Below, piece after piece: positions 28,893 through 43,965 of a stretch of 64,000 nt of DNA (position 1 is the first letter of the stretch; each line of letters begins with the position of its first letter). A program made the position numbers and the translations under genes. The notes beneath the pieces were generated by a model. The model saw only the letters and a list, made by a program, of their open reading frames with translations, did not search any database and was not told where the DNA came from. The stretch lies in assembly GCA_030426085.1 (NCBI GenBank), contig JAUHYW010000060.1, positions 1 through 64,000 on the forward strand, given 5' to 3'. This DNA comes from a bacterium (GTDB lineage: Bacteria; Myxococcota_A; Bradymonadia; UBA7976; UBA1532).

Positions 28893-31010
<2,118 letters not shown>

Positions 31011-31105
31011 GGGGCGACGGGCGGCCGCAGCCGCAGGGCGGCGTTGCGTCGGCCGGAGATCTCCGGTAACTCAACCCGTTCGCCCCGACGACCACGAGGC
31101 CGCCC

Positions 31106-34100
31106 ATGTCCGAGTCCGCGTTCGAGCCCGTCAGCCCCCAGGTGCACTTCCCCGACGTCGAGCAGCAGATCCTCGACCTGTGGGCCCGCATCGACGCCTT
31201 CGCCCGCAGCGTCGCCGACCGGCCCGACGACGCGCGCTACGTCTTCTACGACGGCCCGCCGTTCGCCACCGGGCTGCCCCACTACGGGCACCTCGTCGCC
31301 TCGACCCTCAAGGACATCGTGCCCCGCTACTGGACCATGCGCGGGCACCGGGTCGAGCGCCGCTTCGGCTGGGACACCCACGGCCTGCCCATCGAGATGG
31401 AGATGGAGAAGACGCTCGGCCTCTCGGGGCCGACCGCCATCCGCGAGTACGGGGTCGGAGACTTCAACGAGGCCTGCCGCGACAACGTGCTGCGCTACAC
31501 CGAGGAGTGGGAGAAGGTCGTCGGCCGCCTCGGCCGGTGGGTCGACTTCCGCGACGACTACAAGACCATGGACCTGTCGTTCATGGAGTCGGTGTGGTGG
31601 GTCTTCGAGCAGCTCTGGCAGAAGGGGCTGGTCTACGAGGACTTCCGGGTCATGCCGTTCTCGTGGCGGCTGTCGACCTCGCTGTCGAACTTCGAGGCCA
31701 ACCTCGACTACCGCGTGGTGCAGGATCCGGCGATCACGGTGACCGCGCCGCTGCTCGACGAGCCGGGCACCGCGCTGCTCCTGTGGACGACGACCCCCTG
31801 GACGCTGCCCTCGAATCTGGCCGCGGCGGTGGGCGACGAGGTGGAGTACGTCAAGGCGCAGCGGCCGGGCGACGAGACGGTCTACATCATCGCGAAGGCC
31901 CGGGTGAAGGCGATCCTGGGCAAGAAGGCCACCGTGCTCGAGCCGGTCGCTGTCGACGACCTCGTCGGCCGGCGGTACGCGCCGCTCTTCCCCTACTTCG
32001 AGGGGCACCCCAACGCGTTCCAGGTCATCCGGGCGGACCACGTCACCACCGAGGACGGCACCGGGCTGGTGCACATGGCGCCGGACTATGGTGAAGACGA
32101 CTTCGCCGCGTGCAAGGCGGTGGGCATCGAGGTGGTGCTCAGCGTCGACGACGAGGGGCGGTTCGAGCCGTCGATCACCGACTTCGCCGGGCGCAACATC
32201 AAAGAGGCCGACCCGGACATCATCAAGCACCTCAAGGACGCCGGGCGCCTGCTGCGGCACGACACCATCGACCACAGCTACCCCTTCTGCTGGCGCAGCG
32301 GCACCCCGCTCATCTACAAGGCGGTGCCGGCCCGCTTCGTGCGGGTCGAGGCCCTGCGCGAGCGCATGCAGGCCAACAACGAGCAGATCCACTGGGTGCC
32401 CGAGGCGGTCGGCAGCAAGCGCTTCGGCAACTGGCTGGCCGACGCCCGCGACTGGAACATCAGCCGCAACCGCTTCTGGGGCACCCCGATCCCGATCTGG
32501 CGCTGCGAGGCCTGCGGCGACGAGGTGTGCTATGGCAGCATCGCCGCGCTCTCCGACGCCACCGGCGCCGAGATCGACGACCTGCACCCCCATCGCATCG
32601 ACCACCTGACGGTGCCGTGTGATGCCTGTGACGGTGGCACCCGCCGTCGCATCCCGGATGTCTTCGACTGCTGGTTCGAGTCCGGCTCGATGCCATACGC
32701 GCAGGACCATTATCCCTTCGAAGGCAAGGACGCGTTCGAAGACAACTTCCCGGCGCAGTTCATCGCCGAGGGCCTCGATCAGACCCGGGGCTGGTTCTAC
32801 ACCCTGCTGGTGCTGTCGACCGCGCTCTTCGACCGCCCGCCGTTCCGCAATGTCATCGTCAATGGCATGGTGCTGGCGGAAGACGGCTCGAAGATGAGCA
32901 AGAGCAAGAAGAACTACCCCCCGCCGGATGCCATCTTCGAGCAGTACGGGGCCGACGCGCTGCGGGCGTACCTCATCGACTCGCCCATCGTGCGGGCCGA
33001 GCCGCTGAAGTTCAGCGAGGCCGGGGTGCGCGAGGTGGTGCGCACGGTGCTCATCCCGCTGCGCAACGCGTGGTCGTTCTTGGTGCAGTACGCCAACATC
33101 GACGGGTGGCACCCCCGGCATGGCATCGACGACATGCCGCCCCCGCCGGTCACCGAGCGCCCCGAGCTGGATCGCTGGTTGCTGAGCGTTCAGCAGTCGC
33201 TGGTCGCCGAGGTCAACACCCAGATGGAGGGCTACTACCTCTATCGGGTCATCCCGCCGGTACTCGGCTTCATCGACGACCTCACCAACTGGTACATCCG
33301 CCGCAGCCGGCGCCGCTTCTGGCGGGCGGCGGGCGACGCCGAGGGGCGGGCCGACAAGAACGCGGCCTACGCCACGCTCTACGAGGCGCTGGTGACCTTC
33401 GCCAAGGTGCTCGCGCCCATCCTGCCGTTCATCACCGAGTCGCTGTACCAGAACCTCGTCGTCGACACCGGCTGCGCCGCCGAGGGCCGGGACAGCGTGC
33501 ACCTGTGCGACTACCCCGAGGTCGACGCGGCGCTCATCGACGCCGACCTCGAGCGGCAGATCGCCGAGGTGCGCCGGATCACGGCCCTGGGCCGGGCCCT
33601 GCGCGAGCGGCATCAGCTCAAGGTGCGCCAGCCCCTGCGCCGGCTGACGGTGGTGCACCACGACCCGGCGGTGCTCGCGGCGGCCGAGGCCCACGCCGAT
33701 CTGCTCGGCGAGGAGCTCAACTTCAAGCAGCTCGTGCTGCGGCGCCACGACGATGAGCTGGCGACGCTGTCGTTCAAGGCCAACTACCGCAACCTCGGCC
33801 GGCGGCTGGGCAAGCAGATGAAGGTGGCCGCGGCGACCATCGGCGGGTGGGGTCAGGCCGAGTGGGCCACCCTGCGCGACGGGGGCACGATCGAGGTCTG
33901 CGGGGCCGCGGTCGGCATGGACGACGTGATCCTGCACCGCGAGCCGCGGGAGGGGGTGGTCATCGAGGTCGACGGCGGGCTGACGGTCGCGCTCGACACC
34001 GAGCTGGACGACGCCCTGCTCGAGGAGGGGCTGGCCCGGGAGATCGTCAGCCGCTTGCAGCGGCTGCGCAAGGAGAGCGGGCTCGAGGTCACCGATCGGG

Positions 34101-34285
34101 TCGACCTGCACCTGTACAGCGCGTCGGATGCGCTGCTGCGGGCCTGGCTCAACAACGCCCACTGGACCGGGGTCGAGGTGCTGGCCCACAAGGTCGCGGT
34201 CTCTCCGGGGCGGAGCGGCGGGCAGCACGTCTTCGACATCGACGGCCACACGCTGGAGGTGACGCTGCGCAAGGCCGAGGGCTGA
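31106..34285 (+). CDS. ileS: Isoleucine--tRNA ligase
   Basis: 1059 aa. HYGH and KMSKS motifs. Full-length class-I aaRS. Confidence 0.95.
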   Translation: MSESAFEPVSPQVHFPDVEQQILDLWARIDAFARSVADRPDDARYVFYDGPPFATGLPHYGHLVASTLKDIVPRYWTMRGHRVERRFGWDTHGLPIEMEMEKTLGLSGPTAIREYGVGDFNEACRDNVLRYTEEWEKVVGRLGRWVDFRDDYKTMDLSFMESVWWVFEQLWQKGLVYEDFRVMPFSWRLSTSLSNFEANLDYRVVQDPAITVTAPLLDEPGTALLLWTTTPWTLPSNLAAAVGDEVEYVKAQRPGDETVYIIAKARVKAILGKKATVLEPVAVDDLVGRRYAPLFPYFEGHPNAFQVIRADHVTTEDGTGLVHMAPDYGEDDFAACKAVGIEVVLSVDDEGRFEPSITDFAGRNIKEADPDIIKHLKDAGRLLRHDTIDHSYPFCWRSGTPLIYKAVPARFVRVEALRERMQANNEQIHWVPEAVGSKRFGNWLADARDWNISRNRFWGTPIPIWRCEACGDEVCYGSIAALSDATGAEIDDLHPHRIDHLTVPCDACDGGTRRRIPDVFDCWFESGSMPYAQDHYPFEGKDAFEDNFPAQFIAEGLDQTRGWFYTLLVLSTALFDRPPFRNVIVNGMVLAEDGSKMSKSKKNYPPPDAIFEQYGADALRAYLIDSPIVRAEPLKFSEAGVREVVRTVLIPLRNAWSFLVQYANIDGWHPRHGIDDMPPPPVTERPELDRWLLSVQQSLVAEVNTQMEGYYLYRVIPPVLGFIDDLTNWYIRRSRRRFWRAAGDAEGRADKNAAYATLYEALVTFAKVLAPILPFITESLYQNLVVDTGCAAEGRDSVHLCDYPEVDAALIDADLERQIAEVRRITALGRALRERHQLKVRQPLRRLTVVHHDPAVLAAAEAHADLLGEELNFKQLVLRRHDDELATLSFKANYRNLGRRLGKQMKVAAATIGGWGQAEWATLRDGGTIEVCGAAVGMDDVILHREPREGVVIEVDGGLTVALDTELDDALLEEGLAREIVSRLQRLRKESGLEVTDRVDLHLYSASDALLRAWLNNAHWTGVEVLAHKVAVSPGRSGGQHVFDIDGHTLEVTLRKAEG

Positions 34286-34311
34286 GGCGGCGCGAGACGA
34301 AAGGGGGGAGC

Positions 34312-35316
34312 ATGACGCGAGCAGTGACGCTGCTGGCCGCGGTCGCCGCGCTGGCGCTCGGGGGCTGTGACGACGAGCCGGCGGACGGCGCCGCCGATGT
34401 CGGCGGGGTGATGGACGCCGGGGGCGAGGGCGAGGGGGAAGGTGAGGGCGAGGGCGAAGGGGAAGGTGAGGGCGAAGGGGAAGGTGAGGGCGAGGGCGAG
34501 GGCGAAGGCGAGGGTGAGGGCGAAGGGGAAGGTGAGGGCGAAGGGGAAGGCGAGGGTGAGGGTGAGGGTGAGGGGGAAGGCGAGGGCGAGGGGGAAGGTG
34601 AGGGTGAGGGCGAGGGCGAGTCGGTGGGCCGGGATGGCCTCTTCGGCTCCGACGTCGAGACCTTCACCGTCGAGGTGGACTACGCCGTCGGCGCCGCCCC
34701 CGAGACCCGCCGCGAGGGCCTGCTGAACAACCGCAGCCCGTGGACCCTGTTCGAGACCAACGCCCTGGCGCTCTTCGGCGACGACCCGCCGATGCTCATC
34801 GTGCCCCGCGAGCTGGACGAGATGGAGGCGCTGCCGGCCGACGCCGCGCCGCTCGACGACTACCGCGGCCGCGAGATCCTGGACCTCGCCGAGGTCTACC
34901 GCGACACCCCGTCCCGCCCCGCCGAGCGCAGCGTCTACGTGATCTGGCTCAACGGCTACTACGAGGACGACAGCGGCCGGCGGGACACGGTGCTGGGCGT
35001 CTCGCTGGGCGATTCGGGGGTCATCGCCATGTTCAAGCCGGTGCTCGAGCGGGTGAGCAACACCCCCATCGCCGAGCAGACGACGCTGGTGCACGAGTTC
35101 GGCCACGCCGCGGGGCTGGTGAACAACGGGCTGGAGCAGGTCGAGGACCACCACGACAGCGAGCACGGGGCCCACTGCAGCAACGAGGACTGCGTGATGT
35201 TCTGGCTCGTCGAGAGCGCCGCCGGGCTGGGGGACTTCCTCGGGCTGCTCGGCGGCGGCGACGACCCGGTGCTCTTCGGGCCCGAGTGCCTCGACGACGC
35301 CCGGGCGGCCGAGTGA
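34312..35316 (+). CDS. Lipoprotein zinc metalloprotease-like (HExxH) with (GE)n acidic linker
   Basis: LALGGC lipobox, ~33 x Gly-Glu, then a domain with VHEFGHAAGL...EDHHDSEHGAHCSNEDC. RBS aaagggggga upstream. Confidence 0.6.
   Translation: MTRAVTLLAAVAALALGGCDDEPADGAADVGGVMDAGGEGEGEGEGEGEGEGEGEGEGEGEGEGEGEGEGEGEGEGEGEGEGEGEGEGEGEGEGEGEGEGEGESVGRDGLFGSDVETFTVEVDYAVGAAPETRREGLLNNRSPWTLFETNALALFGDDPPMLIVPRELDEMEALPADAAPLDDYRGREILDLAEVYRDTPSRPAERSVYVIWLNGYYEDDSGRRDTVLGVSLGDSGVIAMFKPVLERVSNTPIAEQTTLVHEFGHAAGLVNNGLEQVEDHHDSEHGAHCSNEDCVMFWLVESAAGLGDFLGLLGGGDDPVLFGPECLDDARAAE
34422..34620 (+). repeat. In-frame hexanucleotide (ggcgag/ggtgag/ggggaa)n repeat encoding (Gly-Glu)~33
   Basis: Seen in sequence, inside CDS 34312..35316. 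Confidence 0.8.
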
Positions 35317-36137
35317 TGGGGGCCGCGACGCGCCGCGGGCGCCGGACGACGCCGGCTCTGCTCACGCTGGCCCTGCTCGCGCTGGCTCCCCCGGCCTGCG
35401 ACGACGAGGGCCCGGGCGGCGGCGGCGACGCGGGCCCCGTCGGGCGGGCGGGGCTCTTCACCGCTGCGGTCGAGTCGCTGACGATCGAGGTGGACTACGC
35501 GCCCGGCGCCGCCCCCGAGGTGCGCTACGGCGGGCTGCTGGCCGGCGACCGCAGCCCGTGGGACATCTTCGAGGCCAACGTCGACGCGCTCTACGACGGC
35601 GCCCCGCCGACGCTGATCCTGCCCCGGGCGCTGGACGCCATGCAGGCCCTGCCCGACGACCTCGGCGGCCCGGACTACACCGGCGACGCCATCACAGCCC
35701 TGGCCGATCGCTTCCGGGACACCCCGTCGACCTCCGCCGACCGCAGCGTGTACGTCATCTGGCTCGACGGCTACTACGCCGACGACTCGGGGCGCCGGGA
35801 CACGGTGCTGGGGGTGTCGCTGGGCGATACCGGGGTCATCGCGATGTTCAAGCCGGTCATCGCGAGCGCGGGGCAGGTGGCTCGGGTCGAGCAGACGACG
35901 CTGGTGCACGAGTTCGGCCACGCCGCCGGGCTGGTGAACAACGGGCTGGCCCAGGTCGAGGACCACCACGACGCCGAGCACGGGGCCCACTGCAGCAACG
36001 AGGACTGCGTGATGTACTGGGCCATCGAGACCGTCGGCGGGGTGCGCGACTTCGTCGGCGCGCTGCTCGGGGGCGACGACCCCCGGGTGCTGTTCGGGCC
36101 GGAGTGCCTGGCCGACGCCCACGCCGCCGGAGGTTGA
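35316..36137 (+). CDS. Paralogous lipoprotein zinc metalloprotease-like (HExxH), no GE linker
   Basis: TGATG overlap with the upstream paralog. ~75% identical catalytic region (VHEFGHAAGLVNNGLAQVEDHHDAEHGAHCSNEDC). Confidence 0.6.
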   Translation: MGAATRRGRRTTPALLTLALLALAPPACDDEGPGGGGDAGPVGRAGLFTAAVESLTIEVDYAPGAAPEVRYGGLLAGDRSPWDIFEANVDALYDGAPPTLILPRALDAMQALPDDLGGPDYTGDAITALADRFRDTPSTSADRSVYVIWLDGYYADDSGRRDTVLGVSLGDTGVIAMFKPVIASAGQVARVEQTTLVHEFGHAAGLVNNGLAQVEDHHDAEHGAHCSNEDCVMYWAIETVGGVRDFVGALLGGDDPRVLFGPECLADAHAAGG

Positions 36138-36158
36138 CGGCGGCGCCGCGGCGCGGCC

Positions 36159-37253
36159 TCACGCCGCCTGTGGCTCGGGCCCCACGTAATGCGCCCGGGG
36201 GCGGATCAGCCGCGCCTCGCGGCGCTGCTCGAGGACGTGCCCCAGCCAGCCCACCACCCGACCGCAGGCGAAAAGCGGGGTGAAGTCGCGGCGGTCGATG
36301 CCGATCGCGTCGAGGATGACCGCGGTCATGAACTCCACGTTGGCCGCCAGCGCCCGATCTGGATGGCGGGCCTTCAACAGCGCGGTCGCCTCGGCCTCGA
36401 CGGCCGCCGCCAGCGCCAGCCGATCGCGCGCCCGCCCGGCCTCGGCCAGCTTCGCGACCCCCGCCTCGAGCACCGCCGCCCGGGGGTCGCGCACCCGGTA
36501 GACCCGGTGGCCCATACCCATGATGCGCCGGCCGGCGGCCAGCTCGGCCTCCAGCCACGCCCGGGCCCGCGCCCGATCGGGCGACCCGATCGCGTCGAGC
36601 ATGTCGAGCACCGGCCCCGGCGCGCCCCCGTGCAGCGGGCCCTTGAGCGCGCCGAGCGCCGCGACCACCGCCGAGACCGCGTCCGATCCGGTCGAGGTCA
36701 CCACCCGGGCGGTGAAGGTCGAGGCGTTCATGCCGTGGTCGACCACCGTCACCAGATAACGCCGCAGCGCGTCGGCCGACGTCTCGTCGGCTCGACCGGT
36801 GAACAGCCGCAGCAGATCGGCGGCGTGCGGCGCGGCCGGGTCAGGGACCAGCGGCTCGAGGCCGCGGCGCAGCCGGGACTGCGCCGCGGCGAAGACCGCG
36901 ACCGCCCCGGCGATCGTGGGCAGCTCGGCCTCGGCCGCGTCCGGCGCCCCGCCGTCCAGGTGCCCGACGGCGGCCCGCAGCGCGTCCATGCCGTCCGCCG
37001 CCCGCAGCGCGTCGCCCAGCGCGGGCAGCATCTCGTGGGCCGCAGCCCGGGCCGCGCCCAGCCGGTGCTCGATGGCCGGCCCCGCGCCGCGGTCGCCGCG
37101 CCACATCAACCCGCACACCTCACCGAGAGACGCCGCCTCGGCGAGCGCCTCCACCCGGTGCCCGCGCAGCACCAGCGCGCCCGCGTCGCCGTCCACCCGG
37201 CTCAGCGTCGTCTCGGTGACGACGATCCCCTGCAATCCGCTCGCGATCTTCAT
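36159..37253 (-). CDS. Citrate synthase (short, CitA/archaeal-type) family protein
   Basis: GPLHGGA, GMGHRVYRVRDPR and DPNVEF-type motifs. ATG at 37253 with GGAGG RBS. The track ORF extends to a GTG at 37280. Confidence 0.8.
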   Translation of the reverse strand: MKIASGLQGIVVTETTLSRVDGDAGALVLRGHRVEALAEAASLGEVCGLMWRGDRGAGPAIEHRLGAARAAAHEMLPALGDALRAADGMDALRAAVGHLDGGAPDAAEAELPTIAGAVAVFAAAQSRLRRGLEPLVPDPAAPHAADLLRLFTGRADETSADALRRYLVTVVDHGMNASTFTARVVTSTGSDAVSAVVAALGALKGPLHGGAPGPVLDMLDAIGSPDRARARAWLEAELAAGRRIMGMGHRVYRVRDPRAAVLEAGVAKLAEAGRARDRLALAAAVEAEATALLKARHPDRALAANVEFMTAVILDAIGIDRRDFTPLFACGRVVGWLGHVLEQRREARLIRPRAHYVGPEPQAA

Positions 37254-37300
37254 GACGGCCTCCAACGTGACGCTGGACACCGTAGCGGGGGCTCTATAGA

Positions 37301-37326
37301 TTGATCAACGTTGATTCAACAATCAA
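37301..37326. promoter_or_regulatory. AT-rich palindromic operator candidate (ttgatcaacgttgattcaacaatcaa) in a divergent intergenic region
   Basis: Contains the perfect palindrome TTGATCAA plus overlapping TTGATTCAA/TTGAATCAA half-sites. It is the only AT-rich patch for kilobases, between two divergent citrate-synthase-family genes. Confidence 0.4.
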
Positions 37327-37344
37327 CCCGAAGAGGGGGATCCG

Positions 37345-38517
37345 ATGGCCGAGACGATCGACGCCCGACAGGCTGCCCGGCTGCTGGGGGTGCAGGTGCG
37401 CACGCTCTACGCCTACGTGAGCCGGGGGCGGCTGGAGAGCCTGCCCGGTCCGGGGCGGGCGAAGCGCTATCGGCGGGCCGACATCGAGCGTCTGCGGCGC
37501 AACCGGGAGGGGGTCGACGCCGCGTTGAGCTGGGGGCAGCCGGTGCTCGAGTCGGCGATCACCGAGATCACCGCCGAGGGCCCGGTCTACCGGGGGCACC
37601 CGGCGATCGGGCTGGCCGAGCGGGGGGCGGCTTTCGAGGCGGTGGCCGAGCTGCTGTGGACCGGCGCGCAGCCGGCGGGGCGGCCGTCCTGGGTCGCGGG
37701 CGCCGAGCCGTCGACGCCGCCGCTCCCGCCCGACGCCGATCCCCTCGCCCGGCTGGCGCTGCTGGTGCCGTGGATGGCGGTGCACGACCCGGGGCGCTTC
37801 AACCGGCGGCCGGCGGCGGTGATCGATCGGGCGCGGCGCGTCATCCGGCGCATGGCCCACGCCCTGGGCCCGCCGGAGCGCCCGACGCCCGGGGCGGGGA
37901 CGGTCGCCGAGCGCCTGGCGGTCGGGTGGGCCGGCCGCCCCGAGGCCGCGGCGGCGCTGGACGCGGCGTTGATCCTGTGGGCCGACCACGAGCTGAACGT
38001 GTCGTCGTTCGCCGCGCGGGTGACGGCCTCGGCTCAGGCCGATGTCTACGCCTGCGTCTCGGCCGGTCTGGCGGCGCTCAGCGGGCCGCGCCACGGCACC
38101 CACTGCGAGCGGGTGGGCGCGCTGGTGGCCGAGATCGGCCGCCCCGAGCGGGCCGAGGCGGTGGTGCACGCCCGCATCCGCCGGGGCGAGGCGCTGCCCG
38201 GCTTCGGCCACCCGCTGTACCCCGCCGGTGATCCCCGCGCGGCCGCCCTGCTGGGGGTGGCGCGGACGCTGGGCACGCCGCCCCGGGTCGAGGCGGCCCT
38301 GGCGCTCATCGAGGTCGCCGCCCGCGAGCTGGAGGCGGCGCCGAACATCGACCTGGGCCTGATCGCGCTGACCGAGGCCCTGGGGCTGCCCCCCCGGGAG
38401 GCGCCGGGCCTGATCGCGGTCGGGCGGACGGCGGGCTGGGTGGCCCACGCGCTGGAGCAGTACGCATCGGGCGCTCTCATCCGGCCCCGGGCGCGGTTCG
38501 TCGGGGGGAGCGGCTGA
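37345..38517 (+). CDS. Excisionase/MerR-type HTH DNA-binding domain fused to a citrate-synthase-like domain (putative metabolite-sensing transcription factor)
   Basis: N-terminus ARLLGVQVRTLYAYVSRGRLESL is an HTH_17/excisionase-type. Remainder ...LWADHELNVSSFAARV...GPRHGTHCE...GFGHPLYPAGDPRA... is the citrate synthase small/large-domain core. Confidence 0.75.
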   Translation: MAETIDARQAARLLGVQVRTLYAYVSRGRLESLPGPGRAKRYRRADIERLRRNREGVDAALSWGQPVLESAITEITAEGPVYRGHPAIGLAERGAAFEAVAELLWTGAQPAGRPSWVAGAEPSTPPLPPDADPLARLALLVPWMAVHDPGRFNRRPAAVIDRARRVIRRMAHALGPPERPTPGAGTVAERLAVGWAGRPEAAAALDAALILWADHELNVSSFAARVTASAQADVYACVSAGLAALSGPRHGTHCERVGALVAEIGRPERAEAVVHARIRRGEALPGFGHPLYPAGDPRAAALLGVARTLGTPPRVEAALALIEVAARELEAAPNIDLGLIALTEALGLPPREAPGLIAVGRTAGWVAHALEQYASGALIRPRARFVGGSG

Positions 38518-38628
38518 GCGGGGCCGGGCTCGATGGGGCTCGGCGTGGCGTCACATCTGCGAATCAGCGCCCCGCCCCGCCCCGCCTCTTCCGACCGGGT
38601 ATCCGACCGCCGACCGATGGAGCCCGCC

Positions 38629-39786
38629 ATGTCCCCGCCCGCCCGCCGGCTCGCGCCGGCGCTGCTCTCGCTGATCGCCCTGTTCCCGCTGCTGACCGCC
38701 TGTGACGATGACGACGACGGGCCCGAGCCCCCGTGCGTGCTCGACGGCGACTGCCCGGATGGGCGGGCCTGCGCCGTCGTGGCGGGCGCCGACGCGTCGC
38801 AGTGCGTCGCCCCGGTGTACATCACCGGGCAGGTGATCGCCGCCGAGGACGGCGGGGGCGTGGCCGACGCCCGGGTGCTGGCGCTGGGGGTCAACGGCGA
38901 GGCCCCCACCGGGGTGGTCTTCACCGACGCCGAGGGGCGCTATCTGCTGCCGGTGCCCGCCGACCGCGACGCCGAGGGGCGCCCGCTCTCCGAGCGCCTG
39001 ACGCTGCGGGTCGACGCCGCCGCCCGCCAGCCGTTCCCGGTGCCGCCCCGGGTCGCGCTGCCCCTCGATCTGGGCGAGGCGATCGGCGACGCCGAGGCCG
39101 GCTGGGCCGTCGAGAACGCCGCCACGACCGTGCGCCTCTTCGCCCTGCCGCCCGCCGCCCGGGGGGTGACCGTCTCCGGTCTCGTCGACCACCCCGACGC
39201 CGGGGGCGCCCTGCTGCTCGCCGAGCGGGGTGATCGGGCGGTCTCGACGAGCATCGTCGACCTCGACGGCGGCTTCGTGCTCTACGACGTGCCGCCCGGC
39301 GCGGTGTCGCTGGTGGGGCTCCTCGCCGGTCTGTACCTGCCGCCGACCGCGGTCGACGTGCCCGAGGCCGGCCTCGCGGGGGTGGTCCTGGGCGCCGAGC
39401 CGGCCGACGGCGTGGTGCAGGGGTCGGTCAGCATCGTCAACGCGCCCGGCGGCGCCGAGACCTCGTTGATCCTGGTGCCCGACAGCGCCTTCGACGCCGA
39501 GGTCGTGCGGGGGCCGGCGGTGGCCGGGCTGCGGGCGGCGCCGGTCAGCGGCGGGTTCACCGGCTACGAGCTGCGGGTCTACGACGCCTTCGGGGCCCTG
39601 GTGCACAGCGACCTGGAGGTGGGCCGGGTCACCGGCGACGACACCGTCTCGGCGAGCTGGGGCGGGCCGCTCGAGCCGGGCATGCTGTACCAGTTCCGGG
39701 CGGCGAGCTTCCGCGAGGACGGCGAGGGGCGGCGCTACATCAGCACCACCGAGGATCTGCGGGGGGTCTTCCGCGCGCCGCAGTGA
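38629..39786 (+). CDS. Lipoprotein with carboxypeptidase-regulatory-like beta-sandwich domains
   Basis: LLTAC lipobox. ITGQVIAAEDGGGVADARVLALG...TDAEGRYLL is a CarboxypepD_reg-like repeat. Confidence 0.5.
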   Translation: MSPPARRLAPALLSLIALFPLLTACDDDDDGPEPPCVLDGDCPDGRACAVVAGADASQCVAPVYITGQVIAAEDGGGVADARVLALGVNGEAPTGVVFTDAEGRYLLPVPADRDAEGRPLSERLTLRVDAAARQPFPVPPRVALPLDLGEAIGDAEAGWAVENAATTVRLFALPPAARGVTVSGLVDHPDAGGALLLAERGDRAVSTSIVDLDGGFVLYDVPPGAVSLVGLLAGLYLPPTAVDVPEAGLAGVVLGAEPADGVVQGSVSIVNAPGGAETSLILVPDSAFDAEVVRGPAVAGLRAAPVSGGFTGYELRVYDAFGALVHSDLEVGRVTGDDTVSASWGGPLEPGMLYQFRAASFREDGEGRRYISTTEDLRGVFRAPQ

Positions 39787-39815
39787 GGCCCTGCCCACTC
39801 GGCGGTGGGGGTGGC

Positions 39816-41246
39816 TCAGCCCCCCGCGGCGCGGGCGCGCAGGGCGGCGACGAGCGCGCTGACCGAGTCGTTCGCGTCCCCGAAGAGCATGCGGGTCTTC
39901 TCGTGGTAGAAGAGCGGGTTGTCGACCCCGGCGTAGCCGGTGCGCCGGCTGCGCTTGAAGATGACCGTGCGGTCCGACTCCCAGACCTCCAGGACCGGCA
40001 TACCCGAGATGGGGCTGCCCTCTTCCTGGGCGATGGGGTTGACGATGTCGTTGGCCCCGATGACCAGCGAGACGTCGGTGCGGGGCAGGTCGTCGTTGAT
40101 CTCCTCCATCTCGAGCACGATGTCGTAGGGCACGTTGGCCTCGGCGAGCAGCACGTTCATGTGCCCCGGCAGCCGGCCGGCCACCGGGTGGATCGCGAAC
40201 CGCACCCGGATGCCCCGGTCGCGCAGGAGCTGGGTCAGGTCGTTGACCGCGTGCTGGGCCCGAGCCACCGCCATGCCGTAGCCCGGCACGATGACGACGT
40301 CCCGGGCGCCGAGCAGCTCGGCGAGCAGGCCGTCGATGTCGGTCTCCTGCACCTCGCCCGGCGCGCCCTCCCGGGGCTTGGGCGGGGCGGCGCTCGCGGT
40401 GCCGAAGCCGCCGAAGATCACGTTCCAGATCGAGCGGTTCATCGCCCGGCACATGATGTAGCTGAGGATGGCCCCGCTCGAGCCGACCAGCGCCCCGGTG
40501 ACGATGAGCAGGTCGTTGCTGAGCATGAAGCCGGCGGCGGCGGCGGTCCAGCCGGAGTAGCTGTTGAGCATCGACACGACCACCGGCATGTCGGCCCCGC
40601 CGATGGCCATGACGAGGTGCACCCCGAGCACGCCGGCCAGCGCGGTCATGATGCCCAGCCACATCAGGCCCTCGGTGGCCAGCTCGCCCCCGACGAAGGG
40701 GTTGCCGGTCTGCACATAGAGCACGCCGAGCGCGATCGAGCCGACCAGCAGCCCCAGGTTGAGCATGTGCCGGCCGGGCAGCAGCAGCGGGGTGCCCGAG
40801 ACCTTGCCCTTGAGCTTGAGGAAGGCGACGACCGATCCGGTGAAGGTGATCGCGCCGATGAACACGTCGATGAAGACCTCGGTGAGGAAGACCCCCGATC
40901 CGTGGCCCTTGTACATCGCCGGATCGAGGTACGAGGCGAAGCCCACCAGCACCGCCGCGGCCCCGACGAAGCTGTGCAGCAGCGCGACGAGCTCGGGCAT
41001 GGCGGTCATCGCGACCCGGGCCGCCATGAGCCAGCCGATGACCGCGCCGATGGCCAGCGCGGGCACCAGCACGGCGTAGAGGTCGACCCCGGGCACGGTG
41101 AGGGTGGCCCCCACCGCGATGGCCATGCCGATGATGCCGTAGACGTTGCCCTTGCGGGCGGTCTCCTGGCTGGACAGCCCGCGCAGGCTCAGGATGAAGA
41201 GCACGCTCGAGACGAGGTAGGCGACGATGAGCAGCGTGTAGATCAT
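39816..41246 (-). CDS. pntB: NAD(P) transhydrogenase subunit beta
   Basis: 476 aa, N-terminal TM block plus C-terminal NADP(H) domain (…[15 protein letters not shown]…). Confidence 0.9.
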
Positions 41247-41256
41247 GTCCGCCCCC

Positions 41257-42837
41257 CTACTTCCGGAACATCTTGAGCATGCGCTGGGTGACCAGGAAGC
41301 CGCCGGCGATGTTGATGGTGGCCAGCAGCACCGCCGCGCCGCCGAGCAGCGCGCTCGGGGTGTCCCATGAGCCTCTGGCCTGCAAGAGCCCGCCGACGAT
41401 GATGATGCCGCTGATGGCGTTGGTGACCGCCATCAGCGGGGTGTGCAGCGCGGCGGTGACGCTCCAGATGACCTGCCAGCCCACGAAGCAGGCGAGCACG
41501 AAGACGGTCAGGTGCTGGAGGAACTCCATCGGCGGGGTCATCTCGCCGGTGTAGCCGAAGCGCAGCCCCAGCCAGACCAGCGCCAGCGCGAGGCCGACGA
41601 ACGCGCCTTTGCCGAACATCGGCTTCGCCGGGGTGGCCGGCGGGGTGGGCTCGGCGACCTTCGGCGGGGTCGGCGCGGCGGCCTGCTCGGGCTCGGCCTT
41701 CTTCTCCGGCTCCGGCGGCGGCTCTTTCTTCGGCGGCGGCCAGAGCTTCTCGCCTTCGTGCAGCACGATGGCGCCCCGGACCACCTCGTCCTCGAGGTCG
41801 ATGTGATAGCCCTCGGCCCGGCCCATGTCGTCGAGCAGGTGGGTCAGGTTGGTGCCGTAGAGCTGGCTGGTGACGGTGGCCATGCGGCTGGGCAGGTCGG
41901 TCAGCCCCAGGATGGTCACCCCGTCGTGCACGGTGATCTCGCCCGGGGCGCACAGCTCGCAGTTGCCCCCGTTCTCGGCGGCCAGATCGACGACCACCGA
42001 GCCCGGCTTCATGCGCTCGACGGCCCGCTTCTCCCACAGGATCGGGGCCTTGCGGCCGGGGATGAGCGCGGTGGTGATGACGATGTCGACCTCGGCGGCC
42101 TGCTCGTAGAACATCTCCATCTCGGCCTCGATGTAGGCCGGGCTCATCACCTTGGCGTAGCCCCCGCCGCCCTCGCCGTCCTCTTCGATCTCGATCTCGA
42201 GGAACTCCGCGCCCAGGCTCTTGACCTGGTCCCGCACCGCCTCGCGGGTGTCGAACGCCCGCACGATGGCCCCCAGGCCGCGGGCGGCGCCGATGGCGGC
42301 CAGCCCGGCGACCCCGGCCCCGATGACGAGCACCTTGGTCGGCGGCACCCGCCCGGCGGCGGTGATCTGGCCGGTGAAGAAGCTGCCGTAGTGCTGGGCG
42401 GCCTCGATGACCGCCCGGTAGCCGGCGGCGTTGGCCATCGAGCTGAGCGCGTCCATCTTCTGGGCCCGGGTGATCCGGGGCACGCAGTCCATGGCGATGA
42501 GGGTGATCTTCTTGGCGGCCAGCTTGCGGACCAGCTCTTCGTTCTGAGCCGGCTGCACGAAGCTGATGAGGTGGGCCCCCTCCCGGATCGCGGCGATCTC
42601 GAGGTCCTTGGGCGCCCGGACCTTCAGGATCAGGTCGCCGGCGGTCCAGATGTCGGCCCCGTCGACCAGCGTCGCCCCGGCCTCTTCGTAGGCCGGATCG
42701 GGGTAGTTGGCCAGCGCGCCGGCCCCGCGCTCGACGAGCACTTCGAATCCGAAGTCGATGAGCTTGCGCACCGTGTCGGGGGTGCCGGCCACCCGGCGCT
42801 CCCCCGGGTGGCTTTCCTTGGGGATGCCGACTTTCAC
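41257..42837 (-). CDS. pntA: NAD(P) transhydrogenase subunit alpha (fused alpha1+alpha2)
   Basis: Starts at GTG, (M)[17 protein letters not shown]... with GAGG RBS. Alanine-dehydrogenase-like NAD domain ([17 protein letters not shown]), then a Pro-rich linker and 4 TM helices. The track ORF 41257..43809 over-extends antisense into the GNAT gene. Confidence 0.85.
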
Positions 42838-42915
42838 GTGGACCTCGCAGGCGTCTCGGGTTCCGGGATGAAACGTTCGTCTCTCTACCACGCCCGCGCA
42901 CGCGGCGGGAGTGGG

Positions 42916-43965
42916 ATGCGCTGTCCCGTGACACGGCCCCCCGCTTCGGGCATCGTCTCGACGATGCAGACGCTGGACTTCCCCGGGCTCGCCGCCGCCG
43001 CAGACGACTGGGACGCGCTCGTCGCCCGCACCCCCGAGATCGATCGCTTCTGCACGTCGAGCGCCTGGATCGTGCCCGCCCGGGCCGCCTTCTGCCCCGG
43101 CGCCCGGCCGTGCATCGCCCTCGACGGGCAGCGGGGGGTGGCGCTGATGGCCCTGCCGGTCGGCGTCGACACCCGGGGCGGGCTGCCGCTGGAAGCCGGC
43201 TGGGGGCTGGCCGCGCCGCTGGTGGGGCCCGACCCCGACGCGACGGTGGCCCTGCTCGACGGGCTGTGGCGCGACGCGCCGACCCCGATGGATGTGCTCT
43301 TCCTCTCGGGCCTGCCCCGCCGCGGGCGCTGGATGGACGCCCTGCTCCGCCGCTTCCGGGGGCGGTTCAGGGTCGGCGTCGGCACCCGCTGCACCCGCCG
43401 CCGGGCTCATATCGGCGACGGCCTGGACGGCTTCTTCGCCCGCCGCTCGCCCAAGTTCAGGGCCAACCTGCGCCGGGCGGTGCGCCGGGCGGCCGAGACG
43501 GGCGTGGTCTACGAGCGGGTCGCCGAGGGGCCGCTGGGGTCGCTCTACGACCGCATCCTGGCGGTCGAGGCCCGGAGCTGGAAGGGCTTGCAGGGGGACG
43601 GCATCGACAGCGGCGCGCCGCGCCTCTTCTACCGCCTGATCGTCGAGCGGCTCATCGCCCGGGGCGCGCTGCGGGTGGTCTTCGCCACCCGCGACGGCGA
43701 GGATCTGGCCTACGTGCTCGGCGGGCTGTTCGGCGACACCTACCGCGGCTTGCAGGTGAGCTACGTCGAGGGCTTCGAGTCCGACGGGCCGGGCAACCTC
43801 GTGCAGCACGAGATGATCCGCTGGCTGATCGAGGAGGGGCTCGTGGTCTACGACCTGGGCACGGACATGCCGTACAAGCGCCGCTGGGCCGAGGAGGCGA
43901 TGGAGACGGTGACCGTGGCCGTCGTGCCGGCCGGCTCCCGCTTCGCCCGGATGTTCGTCGGCTGA
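42916..43965 (+). CDS. FemAB/CelD-like GNAT-fold acyltransferase family protein
   Basis: ...[20 protein letters not shown]...[31 protein letters not shown]... is characteristic of the Acetyltransf_6/BioF2-like family. The start is ambiguous (42916 or 42964). Confidence 0.55.

Follow-up and report, generated by a model that had tools for sequence, protein, structure and literature searches.

A winged helix-turn-helix joined to a citrate synthase-like domain: a probable enzyme-derived regulator paired with a divergent citrate synthase gene and a conserved inverted repeat

The window, a stretch of 64,000 nucleotides (positions 1 to 64,000 of contig JAUHYW010000060.1, assembly GCA_030426085.1) from a bacterium of the lineage Myxococcota_A, contains two divergently oriented genes separated by a short spacer. 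One encodes a protein in which a helix-turn-helix (HTH) is joined to a citrate synthase (CS)-like domain, referred to here as the fusion; the other encodes a stand-alone short CS, referred to as the partner. A conserved sequence in the spacer, containing an inverted repeat, is the putative operator. Taken together with comparisons across bacterial genomes, this arrangement indicates that the fusion is probably a one-component regulator derived from a CS paralogue, which would repress its own gene and control the divergent one. The positions of the features are given in Table 1.

Table 1. Features of the fusion gene, the partner gene and the spacer between them, with positions in the window.
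Feature	Position	Strand	Description	Basis
Fusion gene	37345..38517	+	390 aa: winged HTH, linker, CS-like domain	Pfam, AF2
HTH_17/MerR-type winged HTH, aa 7-54	37363..37506	+	strand-helix-helix-strand-strand-helix; recognition helix TLYAYVSRG	
Flexible linker, ~aa 55-67	37507..37545	+	pLDDT <50 in full-length model	
Citrate-synthase-like domain, aa 63-382	37531..38490	+		Pfam, GltA alignment, Foldseek
Partner gene	36159..37253	-	stand-alone short CS, 364 aa, PRK12350 / Mtb CitA / Caulobacter CitB type, NVEF	Pfam, NCBIfam
Conserved putative operator	37305..37327	+	TCAAC-G-TTGAT-TCAACA-ATCAAC; H1 37305-37309, H2 (TTGAT) 37311-37315, H3 (ATCAAC) 37322-37327	
H2/H3 inverted repeat	within 37305..37327		16 bp, proposed dimer site	
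Putative partner -35	37303..37308	-	TTGATC; equals half-site H1, part of TTGATCAA palindrome	family comparison
Putative partner -10	37279..37284	-	TACGGT, 18 nt from -35	sequence
Promoter-like site for fusion gene	37274..37302	+	TGGACA-17-TAGATT	consensus match only
Shine-Dalgarno-like, fusion	37333..37339	+	AGGGGGA/GAGGGGG, 5-6 nt upstream of fusion ATG	sequence reading, inferred
Shine-Dalgarno-like, partner	37259..37263	-	GGAGG, 5 nt upstream of partner ATG 37253	sequence reading, inferred

The fusion protein matched HTH_17 (34.8 bits, cutoff 27), more weakly MerR_1 (24.3 bits, cutoff 21.6), and Citrate_synt (PF00285; 222.6 bits, cutoff 27) in Pfam, which places it in the citrate synthase superfamily. 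An earlier note on this DNA had read the gene as an HTH fused to a full citrate-synthase-like domain, and these matches bear that reading out. The peptides it had quoted, ARLLGVQVRTLYAYVSRGRLESL, LWADHELNVSSF, GPRHGTHCE and GFGHPLYPAGDPRA, were all present in the translation. The AlphaFold2 (AF2) model of the full-length fusion, made from a 30-sequence alignment, had a mean predicted local distance difference test (pLDDT) score of 88.6 and comprised, from the N-terminus, a strand-helix-helix-hairpin-helix module (aa 4-55), a linker of low confidence (aa 55-67) and the fold of a CS. In Foldseek the whole model aligned with Mycobacterium tuberculosis (Mtb) methylcitrate synthase PrpC (3hwk), Thermus thermophilus CS (1ixe) and Mtb CitA at template modelling (TM) scores of 0.74-0.79, the Mtb methylcitrate synthase being the best structural match.

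Residues 1-66, modelled alone (pLDDT 82), had as neighbours the mycobacteriophage Xis 4j2n, BldC-DNA (6amk/6ama), SoxR-DNA, MtaN-DNA and CadR-DNA, each at a Foldseek probability of 1.00, and also RacA; TM scores against BldC-DNA and Xis were 0.72-0.79. The Foldseek E-values were modest (5e-3) because the domain is small, and a PDB sequence search with it gave the same structural set, weakly. From the fold neighbours and the Pfam matches, the N-terminal domain was assigned as a winged HTH of the MerR/excisionase type; Pfam, AF2 and Foldseek thus agree on the HTH predicted in the earlier note. The dimerisation coiled-coil helix and the C-terminal effector region of MerR were absent from the AF2 models, and the fusion is not a MerR protein proper: the wing is followed by a single helix (aa 44-55/62), the disordered linker and the CS domain. 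With a DNA-binding and an input domain in one polypeptide (Pfam, AF2), it has the layout of a one-component regulator. The identical protein was encoded on four independent contigs. It was 55% identical to the fusion of Nannocystis exedens, and the closest genome loci were from Myxococcota among the matches listed.

The partner matched Citrate_synt at 319.2 bits (4e-95, cutoff 27) and exceeded the NCBIfam cutoff of PRK12350 (353.7 versus 332), which makes it a member of that enzyme family and confirms the stand-alone short CS described in the earlier note. The mechanical list of open reading frames (ORFs) started it at GTG 37280, with ATG 37253 as the alternative. The latter is preferred because it was called on near-identical contigs (364 aa), fits the N-termini of the orthologues and has GGAGG upstream at a suitable distance (Table 1); with this start the spacer is 37254..37344, the 91 bp stated earlier. 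Identity to the Nannocystis, Sorangium and Polyangiaceae orthologues was 59-61%. At the position of the catalytic Asp, 54 of 55 partner orthologues have Glu (NVEF, not NVDF), as does Mtb CitA; the fusion paralogue, unlike the partner lineage, retains the canonical Asp in 76 of 80 loci. The window as a whole is 74% G+C rather than the 70% given before, and 37296..37331 is 36% G+C. The AT-rich string reported for the spacer is ttgatcaacgttgattcaacaatcaa (37301..37326), and ATCAACGTTGAT is a perfect 12-bp palindrome. No terminator was found in the 91-bp spacer, and an Rfam E-value scan of 36000..38700 for structured RNA gave only a chance snoRNA match inside the fusion ORF.

In a scan of one genome per species, the fusion was encoded in at least 597 species-level genomes, distributed over Myxococcota, Chloroflexota, Acidobacteriota, Gemmatimonadota, Binatia and the alpha-, beta- and gammaproteobacteria. 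The N-terminal 106 aa had matches in 823 clusters at 50% identity (E<=1e-10), and a search with the protein yielded thousands of relatives; among the best 120, nearly all had both domains. Where the sources named these homologues, the name was mostly 'citrate synthase'. Synteny and operator counts were taken from 80 genome loci kept of the at least 597. A divergent orthologue of the partner (45-61% identity) lay directly upstream of the fusion in ~52 of the 80, spanning Myxococcota, Chloroflexota, Acidobacteriota and the alpha-, beta- and gammaproteobacteria, and four further loci had another gene between the two. In one homologue (P0127, 792 aa), residues 405-503 match the N-terminal region of the fusion; this may be a tandem fusion of partner CS and HTH-CS, or a merge of two gene calls.

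The putative operator in the window, TCAACGTTGATTCAACAATCAAC, occurs once in the 64 kb. It agrees with the family consensus TCAAYNTTGATNNNNNNATCAAY at every position; no further match with <=2 mismatches was found in the 64 kb, and 100 shuffles yielded none. Scored with the family matrix it reached 32.3 bits, and the next best match in the window 12.3 bits. All 48 of the 48 distinct divergent spacers contained TCAAY-N-TTGAT-N6/7-ATCAAY, always pointing the same way with respect to the fusion gene, and the TTGAT/ATCAA core is invariant in the matrix. The form with a 7-nt spacer occurs in most proteobacterial loci, including all ten alphaproteobacterial divergent spacers and five Lysobacterales loci. 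The 6-nt form belongs to Myxococcota, Chloroflexota and Acidobacteriota, together with three uncultured gammaproteobacterial loci (L052, L057, L058).

When the matrix was applied in a leave-one-out design, the top match per ~13-kb locus was located 20-120 nt upstream of the fusion in ~60 of 77 loci. These successes cover loci outside the matrix training as well as loci that have no partner (Ktedonobacter, Pandoraea, Lysobacterales and others). In L036 and L039, where a gene of the threonine/serine-dehydratase type precedes the fusion on the same strand, the operator is upstream of the dehydratase gene and adjoins the partner.

The search was also run from motif to gene: metagenome contigs were scanned with the motif alone, in its 7-nt-spacer form, and 80 loci were read. 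At 60 of them a fusion ORF started 0-83 nt downstream in the orientation of the motif, and translation added 4 more (~64/80, ~80%). Three loci were truncated at the contig end, two of them with the partner upstream, and a fourth with 217 nt of downstream sequence also had the partner upstream. The remaining loci lay on contigs of 31-52% G+C, consistent with chance matches, except for the high-GC L092 and L100, in which the downstream ORF had no HTH. A conserved inverted repeat that is inherited together with the gene it precedes was therefore recovered in both directions, gene to motif and motif to gene. On the protein side, L21, Y22, Y24 and S26 of the recognition helix were each present in 120 of 120 homologues, and TLYAYVSRG is essentially invariant. 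Taken together, the invariant helix, the invariant half-site and the strict linkage of gene to site make a strong case that the conserved operator is bound by the fusion protein.

Several loci departed from the common pattern. Four Myxococcaceae loci (L007, L012, L015, L022) had no divergent CS partner, and their operator matches scored 14-20 bits or were missing; the recognition helix there is TLYTYVSRG, not TLYAYVSRG, and these may form a diverged subfamily with another target. A Polyangia metagenome-assembled genome (L030:5640-5790) had about five tandem operator copies of TTGATTCAANNATCAACATAN at ~21-bp spacing, and Nannocystis exedens (L079:5846-5950) had two copies ~76 bp apart; such multiplied operators suggest cooperative or higher-order binding in some lineages. 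Among Sorangium spp. (L009-L014), with spacers of 285-397 bp, the main operator was beside the partner, 200-330 nt from the aligned fusion start, and a second, degenerate pair, ACGTTGATGGGC...CATGGTTGATC, was near the fusion gene. Downstream of the operator at L088:106-501, an ORF opened with ~42 aa of typical HTH sequence (...TLYAYVSRG...) and then ran into unrelated sequence; either it is a variant with the HTH only, or the contig is chimeric.

In 91 of 105 family loci, the first half-site appears on the partner strand as TTGATC, TTGACG, TTGACA or TTGACC. A -10-like hexamer, nAnnnT, followed the TTGAYN hexamer at 17 nt in 55 of 104 loci and at 16-18 nt in 77 of 104, against a background of ~3/104; in the genome-only set, 36 of 44 loci had such a phased hexamer. 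Because of this phasing, H1 was assigned as the -35 box of the partner promoter. The TTGAT-N6-ATCAA inverted repeat abuts this box, ends 2 bp upstream of the hexamer and is centred near -46. The earlier note had taken the TTGATCAA palindrome as the operator. That a site conserved across phyla is present there was upheld, but the palindrome itself is mostly the putative partner -35 box, and the likely dimer site is the adjoining TTGAT-N6-ATCAA.

For the fusion gene, the promoter-like site of the window (1 found versus 0.1 expected in shuffles) predicts a transcript that begins at about the operator's first bases. Among 44 genome loci, the end of the operator was <=30 nt from the first in-frame fusion start codon in 35 and abutted it in 13; only genome figures are given here because the metagenome pattern forced an A after ATCAAT, which inflated the counts in which ATG abuts the operator. 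Across lineages, -10-like signals on the fusion side overlap the conserved operator bases. Since the operator thus lies on or just past the core promoter of the fusion's own gene, the geometry favours autorepression by the fusion. At the partner the fusion could act as a repressor, by steric clash, or as an activator, and repression is the favoured reading.

The active site of the CS domain was compared with that of E. coli GltA (taken as L084), and residue conservation was counted in 120 fusion homologues. Fusion residues H215, H250, H289, R298, D336, R361 and R380 align with GltA H229, H264, H305, R314, D362, R387 and R407, so that the catalytic residues H264, H305 and D362 and the oxaloacetate/citrate ligands H229, R314, R387 and R407 all have equivalents in the fusion. 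The alignment that the earlier note had called for thereby returned its catalytic His and Asp as H250, H289 and D336. H215, H250, H289, R298, R361 and R380 were each found in 120 of 120 homologues, and D336 in 116 of 120. The motifs GP(R/K)HG and GFGHP(L/V)Y are common to the fusion family and to the PrpC-type enzyme of L078. None of the NCBIfam enzyme families claimed the fusion: the best, PRK12350, scored 176.5 against its cutoff of 332, the other models were far below cutoff, and the CS domain was ~35 residues short of the Pfam model span. HPLYP after the second catalytic His had been considered a sign of a dead enzyme or of lost CoA binding, but the genuine PrpC of L078 reads HPVYT there, and the idea was dropped on that ground. 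With the catalytic apparatus fully invariant, the domain may still turn substrate over, in the manner of a trigger enzyme; the term 'repurposed', which the earlier note had used, is thus not established for it.

The genes that face the fusion and its operator differ among lineages. In Luteimonas (L078) they are prpB, prpC and acnD, all of which pass their NCBIfam equivalog cutoffs, and at four other Lysobacterales loci a distant CS lies 1.1-2.2 kb upstream. In one Gemmatimonadota locus the partner CS is preceded, on its own strand, by a leuB-like dehydrogenase gene, and the two may be co-transcribed. An HMGL-like (homocitrate/isopropylmalate-synthase-like) gene is present at the fusion locus of Ktedonobacter, and a family III CoA-transferase gene at that of Pandoraea. 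The predicted targets are metabolically coherent, their common theme being the condensation of an acyl-CoA with a 2-oxo acid and the chemistry of the methylcitrate cycle. On account of this shared chemistry, oxaloacetate, an acyl-CoA or (methyl)citrate is the presumed signal.

One pair of this kind appears to have been described in Caulobacter crescentus, which has two adjacent extra CS genes, citB and citC (Bergé et al. 2020, eLife, PMC7083601). CitB rescued an E. coli gltA mutant and CitC did not, and CitC (CCNA_03758) was treated as a third CS paralogue beside CitB (CCNA_03757), with no mention of an HTH, an operator or a regulatory role (PMC7083601). The citB cloning primer of that study encodes MSDGLEGV, a partner-type N-terminus as in Caulobacter L064; the citC primer encodes MTDWMD, which resembles the fusion N-termini MSDWL (L083) and MTDWL (L128). 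Both the divergent pair and the operator recur at the Caulobacter loci L064, L075 and L083. From the primer-encoded N-termini, and from these other Caulobacter species, CitC is very probably the HTH-CS fusion and CitB its partner. Full-text literature searches for an HTH-CS fusion, a CS-like regulator or a CS-fold trigger enzyme found no description, and Streptomyces papers merely list SCO5831 as a 'citrate synthase-like protein'. The earlier note's remark that the architecture is poorly characterised therefore holds, CitC having been published only as a CS paralogue that fails to complement.

The proposed regulation would work as follows. The fusion would dimerise through its CS-like body, and its two N-terminal winged HTHs, each on a flexible linker of ~12 residues, would bind TTGAT-N6-ATCAA in the control region. 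From the position of the site, the bound fusion would most likely repress its own gene and block the partner promoter; for the partner, the main alternative is activation from the same position. CS enzymes shift from an open to a closed form on substrate binding. In the fusion the retained CS active site may serve as the sensor, with oxaloacetate, alone or with an acyl-CoA, or the product citrate or 2-methylcitrate driving this domain movement. Closure could then alter the geometry of the two HTHs and lead to release of the DNA or to re-set binding, and expression of the auxiliary CS would be tied to substrate supply.

Four other explanations were weighed against regulation by a ligand-sensing repressor. 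The fusion could be chiefly an active citrate or 2-methylcitrate synthase isozyme whose HTH couples turnover to transcription in the style of PutA and BirA, so that DNA binding tracks the catalytic state and not simple ligand occupancy. The invariance of its catalytic and oxaloacetate-binding residues, with the general base Asp nearly so, speaks for this, as do the two motifs shared with a PrpC-type enzyme and the methylcitrate synthase as best structural match. We nevertheless regard it as rather unlikely: the score lies far below every NCBIfam enzyme cutoff, the domain is shortened, and a dedicated enzyme is nearly always encoded alongside the fusion. The failure of CitC to rescue E. coli gltA (PMC7083601) points the same way, within the limit that it tests only CS activity and in a foreign host. 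Equally doubtful is a reversal of sign at the partner, by which the fusion would repress itself and, bound next to the -35 box like a LysR protein, activate the divergent CS gene or prp operon; on its own promoter it might act like MerR, by distorting an over-long spacer. A palindrome ending just upstream of a -35 box and centred at about -46 is in a common activator position, the HTH is of the MerR type, and on the fusion strand of several Chloroflexota and Acidobacteriota loci, the 18 nt between a -35-like TCAACA and a TATAAT are taken up by the palindrome. The fusion, however, is without the MerR dimerisation helix, and the simpler expectation for a bulky CS dimer at -38..-53 is a clash with RNA polymerase; the -35 boxes of the partner are also near-consensus (TTGACA/TTGACG/TTGATC), which is unusual for activator-dependent promoters.

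The FNR box is TTGAT-N4-ATCAA, and by this consensus the operator half-sites are identical to those of FNR. The AT-rich site might accordingly be owned by another factor, for example of the FNR/CRP type, or consist of mere back-to-back promoters, the first half-site clearly doubling as a -35 box, and the HTH would then have a different role or none. We consider this very improbable. The spacing was 6 or 7 nt in 106 of 106 unique instances and never 4, on which ground an FNR/CRP box was rejected; the site stays with the fusion gene where the partner is missing or replaced, and the motif-only search lands beside the fusion gene in most matches. A recognition helix invariant across phyla would be hard to explain without a conserved DNA target, and promoter elements alone would not hold both palindrome arms invariant from Chloroflexota to Proteobacteria. 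Least credible of all is an excisionase or recombination-directionality role, or an artefact of gene fusion or assembly. HTH_17 is an excisionase family model and a phage Xis is the top structural neighbour of the domain, but the flanking genes scanned (ileS, two lipoprotein-like ORFs, a CarboxypepD_reg-like ORF and pntB) included no integrase or phage domain, and no consistent linkage to an integrase or att site was seen in the 80 loci. The number of genomes with the fusion, their conserved chromosomal synteny and the independent contigs with an identical protein likewise speak against both.

Several points weigh against the ligand-sensing repressor itself. Its regulatory claims rest on comparative genomics, and full retention of the catalytic His/His/Asp exceeds what a pure ligand sensor needs and could mean that the protein is mainly an enzyme. 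The failed complementation by CitC could be due to its being poorly expressed in E. coli. In ~15-20 of the 80 genome loci, notably the partner-less Myxococcaceae, the operator match was weak or missing. The fusion promoter of the window is a weak consensus match and the proposed partner -10, TACGGT, is also weak, and a palindrome centred near -46 of the partner start occupies a position used by activators and repressors alike.

Even so, the earlier note's idea of a CS-fold transcription factor that autoregulates and controls its paralogue is supported by the conserved pairing, by the operator that travels with the gene, by retrieval from the motif alone and by the invariant recognition helix. 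As judged from sequence comparison, the fusion is best described as a predicted enzyme-derived one-component regulator with a cross-phylum operator, resembling trigger-enzyme-like regulators and misannotated as an enzyme in most records. A wider proposal is offered more tentatively: an intact, catalytically competent CS site used as signal input may define a cross-phylum, unrecognised regulator family, which would read oxaloacetate/acyl-CoA through closure or turnover, set the expression of the auxiliary CS and elsewhere of the methylcitrate cycle, and might be titrated by heterodimerising with its paralogue.

On one side of the pair, ileS (isoleucyl-tRNA synthetase, 31106..34285, +) is a housekeeping gene that has no evident connection in function with the two CS genes. 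Between it and the partner lie two lipoprotein-like ORFs, paralogous and in tandem (34312..35316 and 35316..36137, both +), which have a Cys-Asp-Asp lipobox-like start and a metalloprotease-like motif, HEFGHAAGL (HExxH); the former contains a run of ~60 residues of pure Gly-Glu repeats, and neither had a Pfam match above cutoff. On the other side are pntB (NAD(P) transhydrogenase, PNTB 635 bits; 39816..41246, -) and a pntA-like ORF from ~41257 (-), again ordinary housekeeping genes with no obvious functional link to the pair. Many long overlapping antisense ORFs (<=1137 aa) on both strands of 30836..43965 are artefacts of 74% G+C and not genes. As six-frame ORF picking yields such spurious ORFs in high-GC loci, only ORFs confirmed by a family model were used.

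Second and third bacterial 'citrate synthase' genes of unclear role are routinely annotated as enzymes, and these results suggest that one widespread class of them encodes a regulator. It would arrive with a predictable operator and predictable targets, which for most lineages are an auxiliary CS and for Lysobacterales prpB-prpC-acnD. A direct hypothesis follows for Caulobacter CitC, unexplained since 2020; if true, this would be the first regulator built on the CS fold and would explain the orphan CitC. It would give a handle on how entry to the tricarboxylic acid (TCA) and methylcitrate cycles is matched to the supply of oxaloacetate and acyl-CoA, and the operator-regulator pair could become a biosensor once the effector is known.

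Among known proteins, the closest by PDB sequence match to the fusion CS domain is Mtb CitA (Rv0889c; PDB 6wgy, 8gi7 and others; PRK12350). It belongs to the family of the partner, with which it shares Glu at the catalytic-Asp position, and it has no HTH, whereas the fusion has one, keeps Asp and falls well short of the PRK12350 cutoff. Caulobacter CitB, in common with the partner family, functions as a CS. The N-terminal domain has its fold in common with BldC, the winged HTH of the MerR superfamily and phage Xis; the coiled coil and effector domain of MerR and the integrase context of Xis are not found in the fusion, and BldC binds direct repeats as a monomer, whereas the fusion is expected to dimerise via its CS body. 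Divergent regulators beside CS or prpBC genes are known in CcpC/CitR (LysR type) and in PrpR (sigma-54 type, Salmonella). These proteins are unrelated to the fusion; they sense citrate or 2-methylcitrate, which makes them a plausible precedent for its effector. Xanthomonas citri PrpR, which binds GTTGCAA-N2-TTGCAAC (PMC12153269), was considered as the same regulator and rejected, being Salmonella-PrpR-like and having a palindrome different from TTGAT-N6-ATCAA.

Trigger enzymes and enzyme-fused regulators such as PutA, BirA and NadR have a DNA-binding domain and an enzyme fold in one polypeptide. The fusion resembles them in combining an intact active site with a DNA-binding domain and in being placed to regulate genes of the same pathway. 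It differs in that their DNA-binding domains are of other types and their enzyme folds unrelated, and catalysis by the fusion is only a possibility. A sensor with the CS fold would join this set of enzyme-derived transcription factors.

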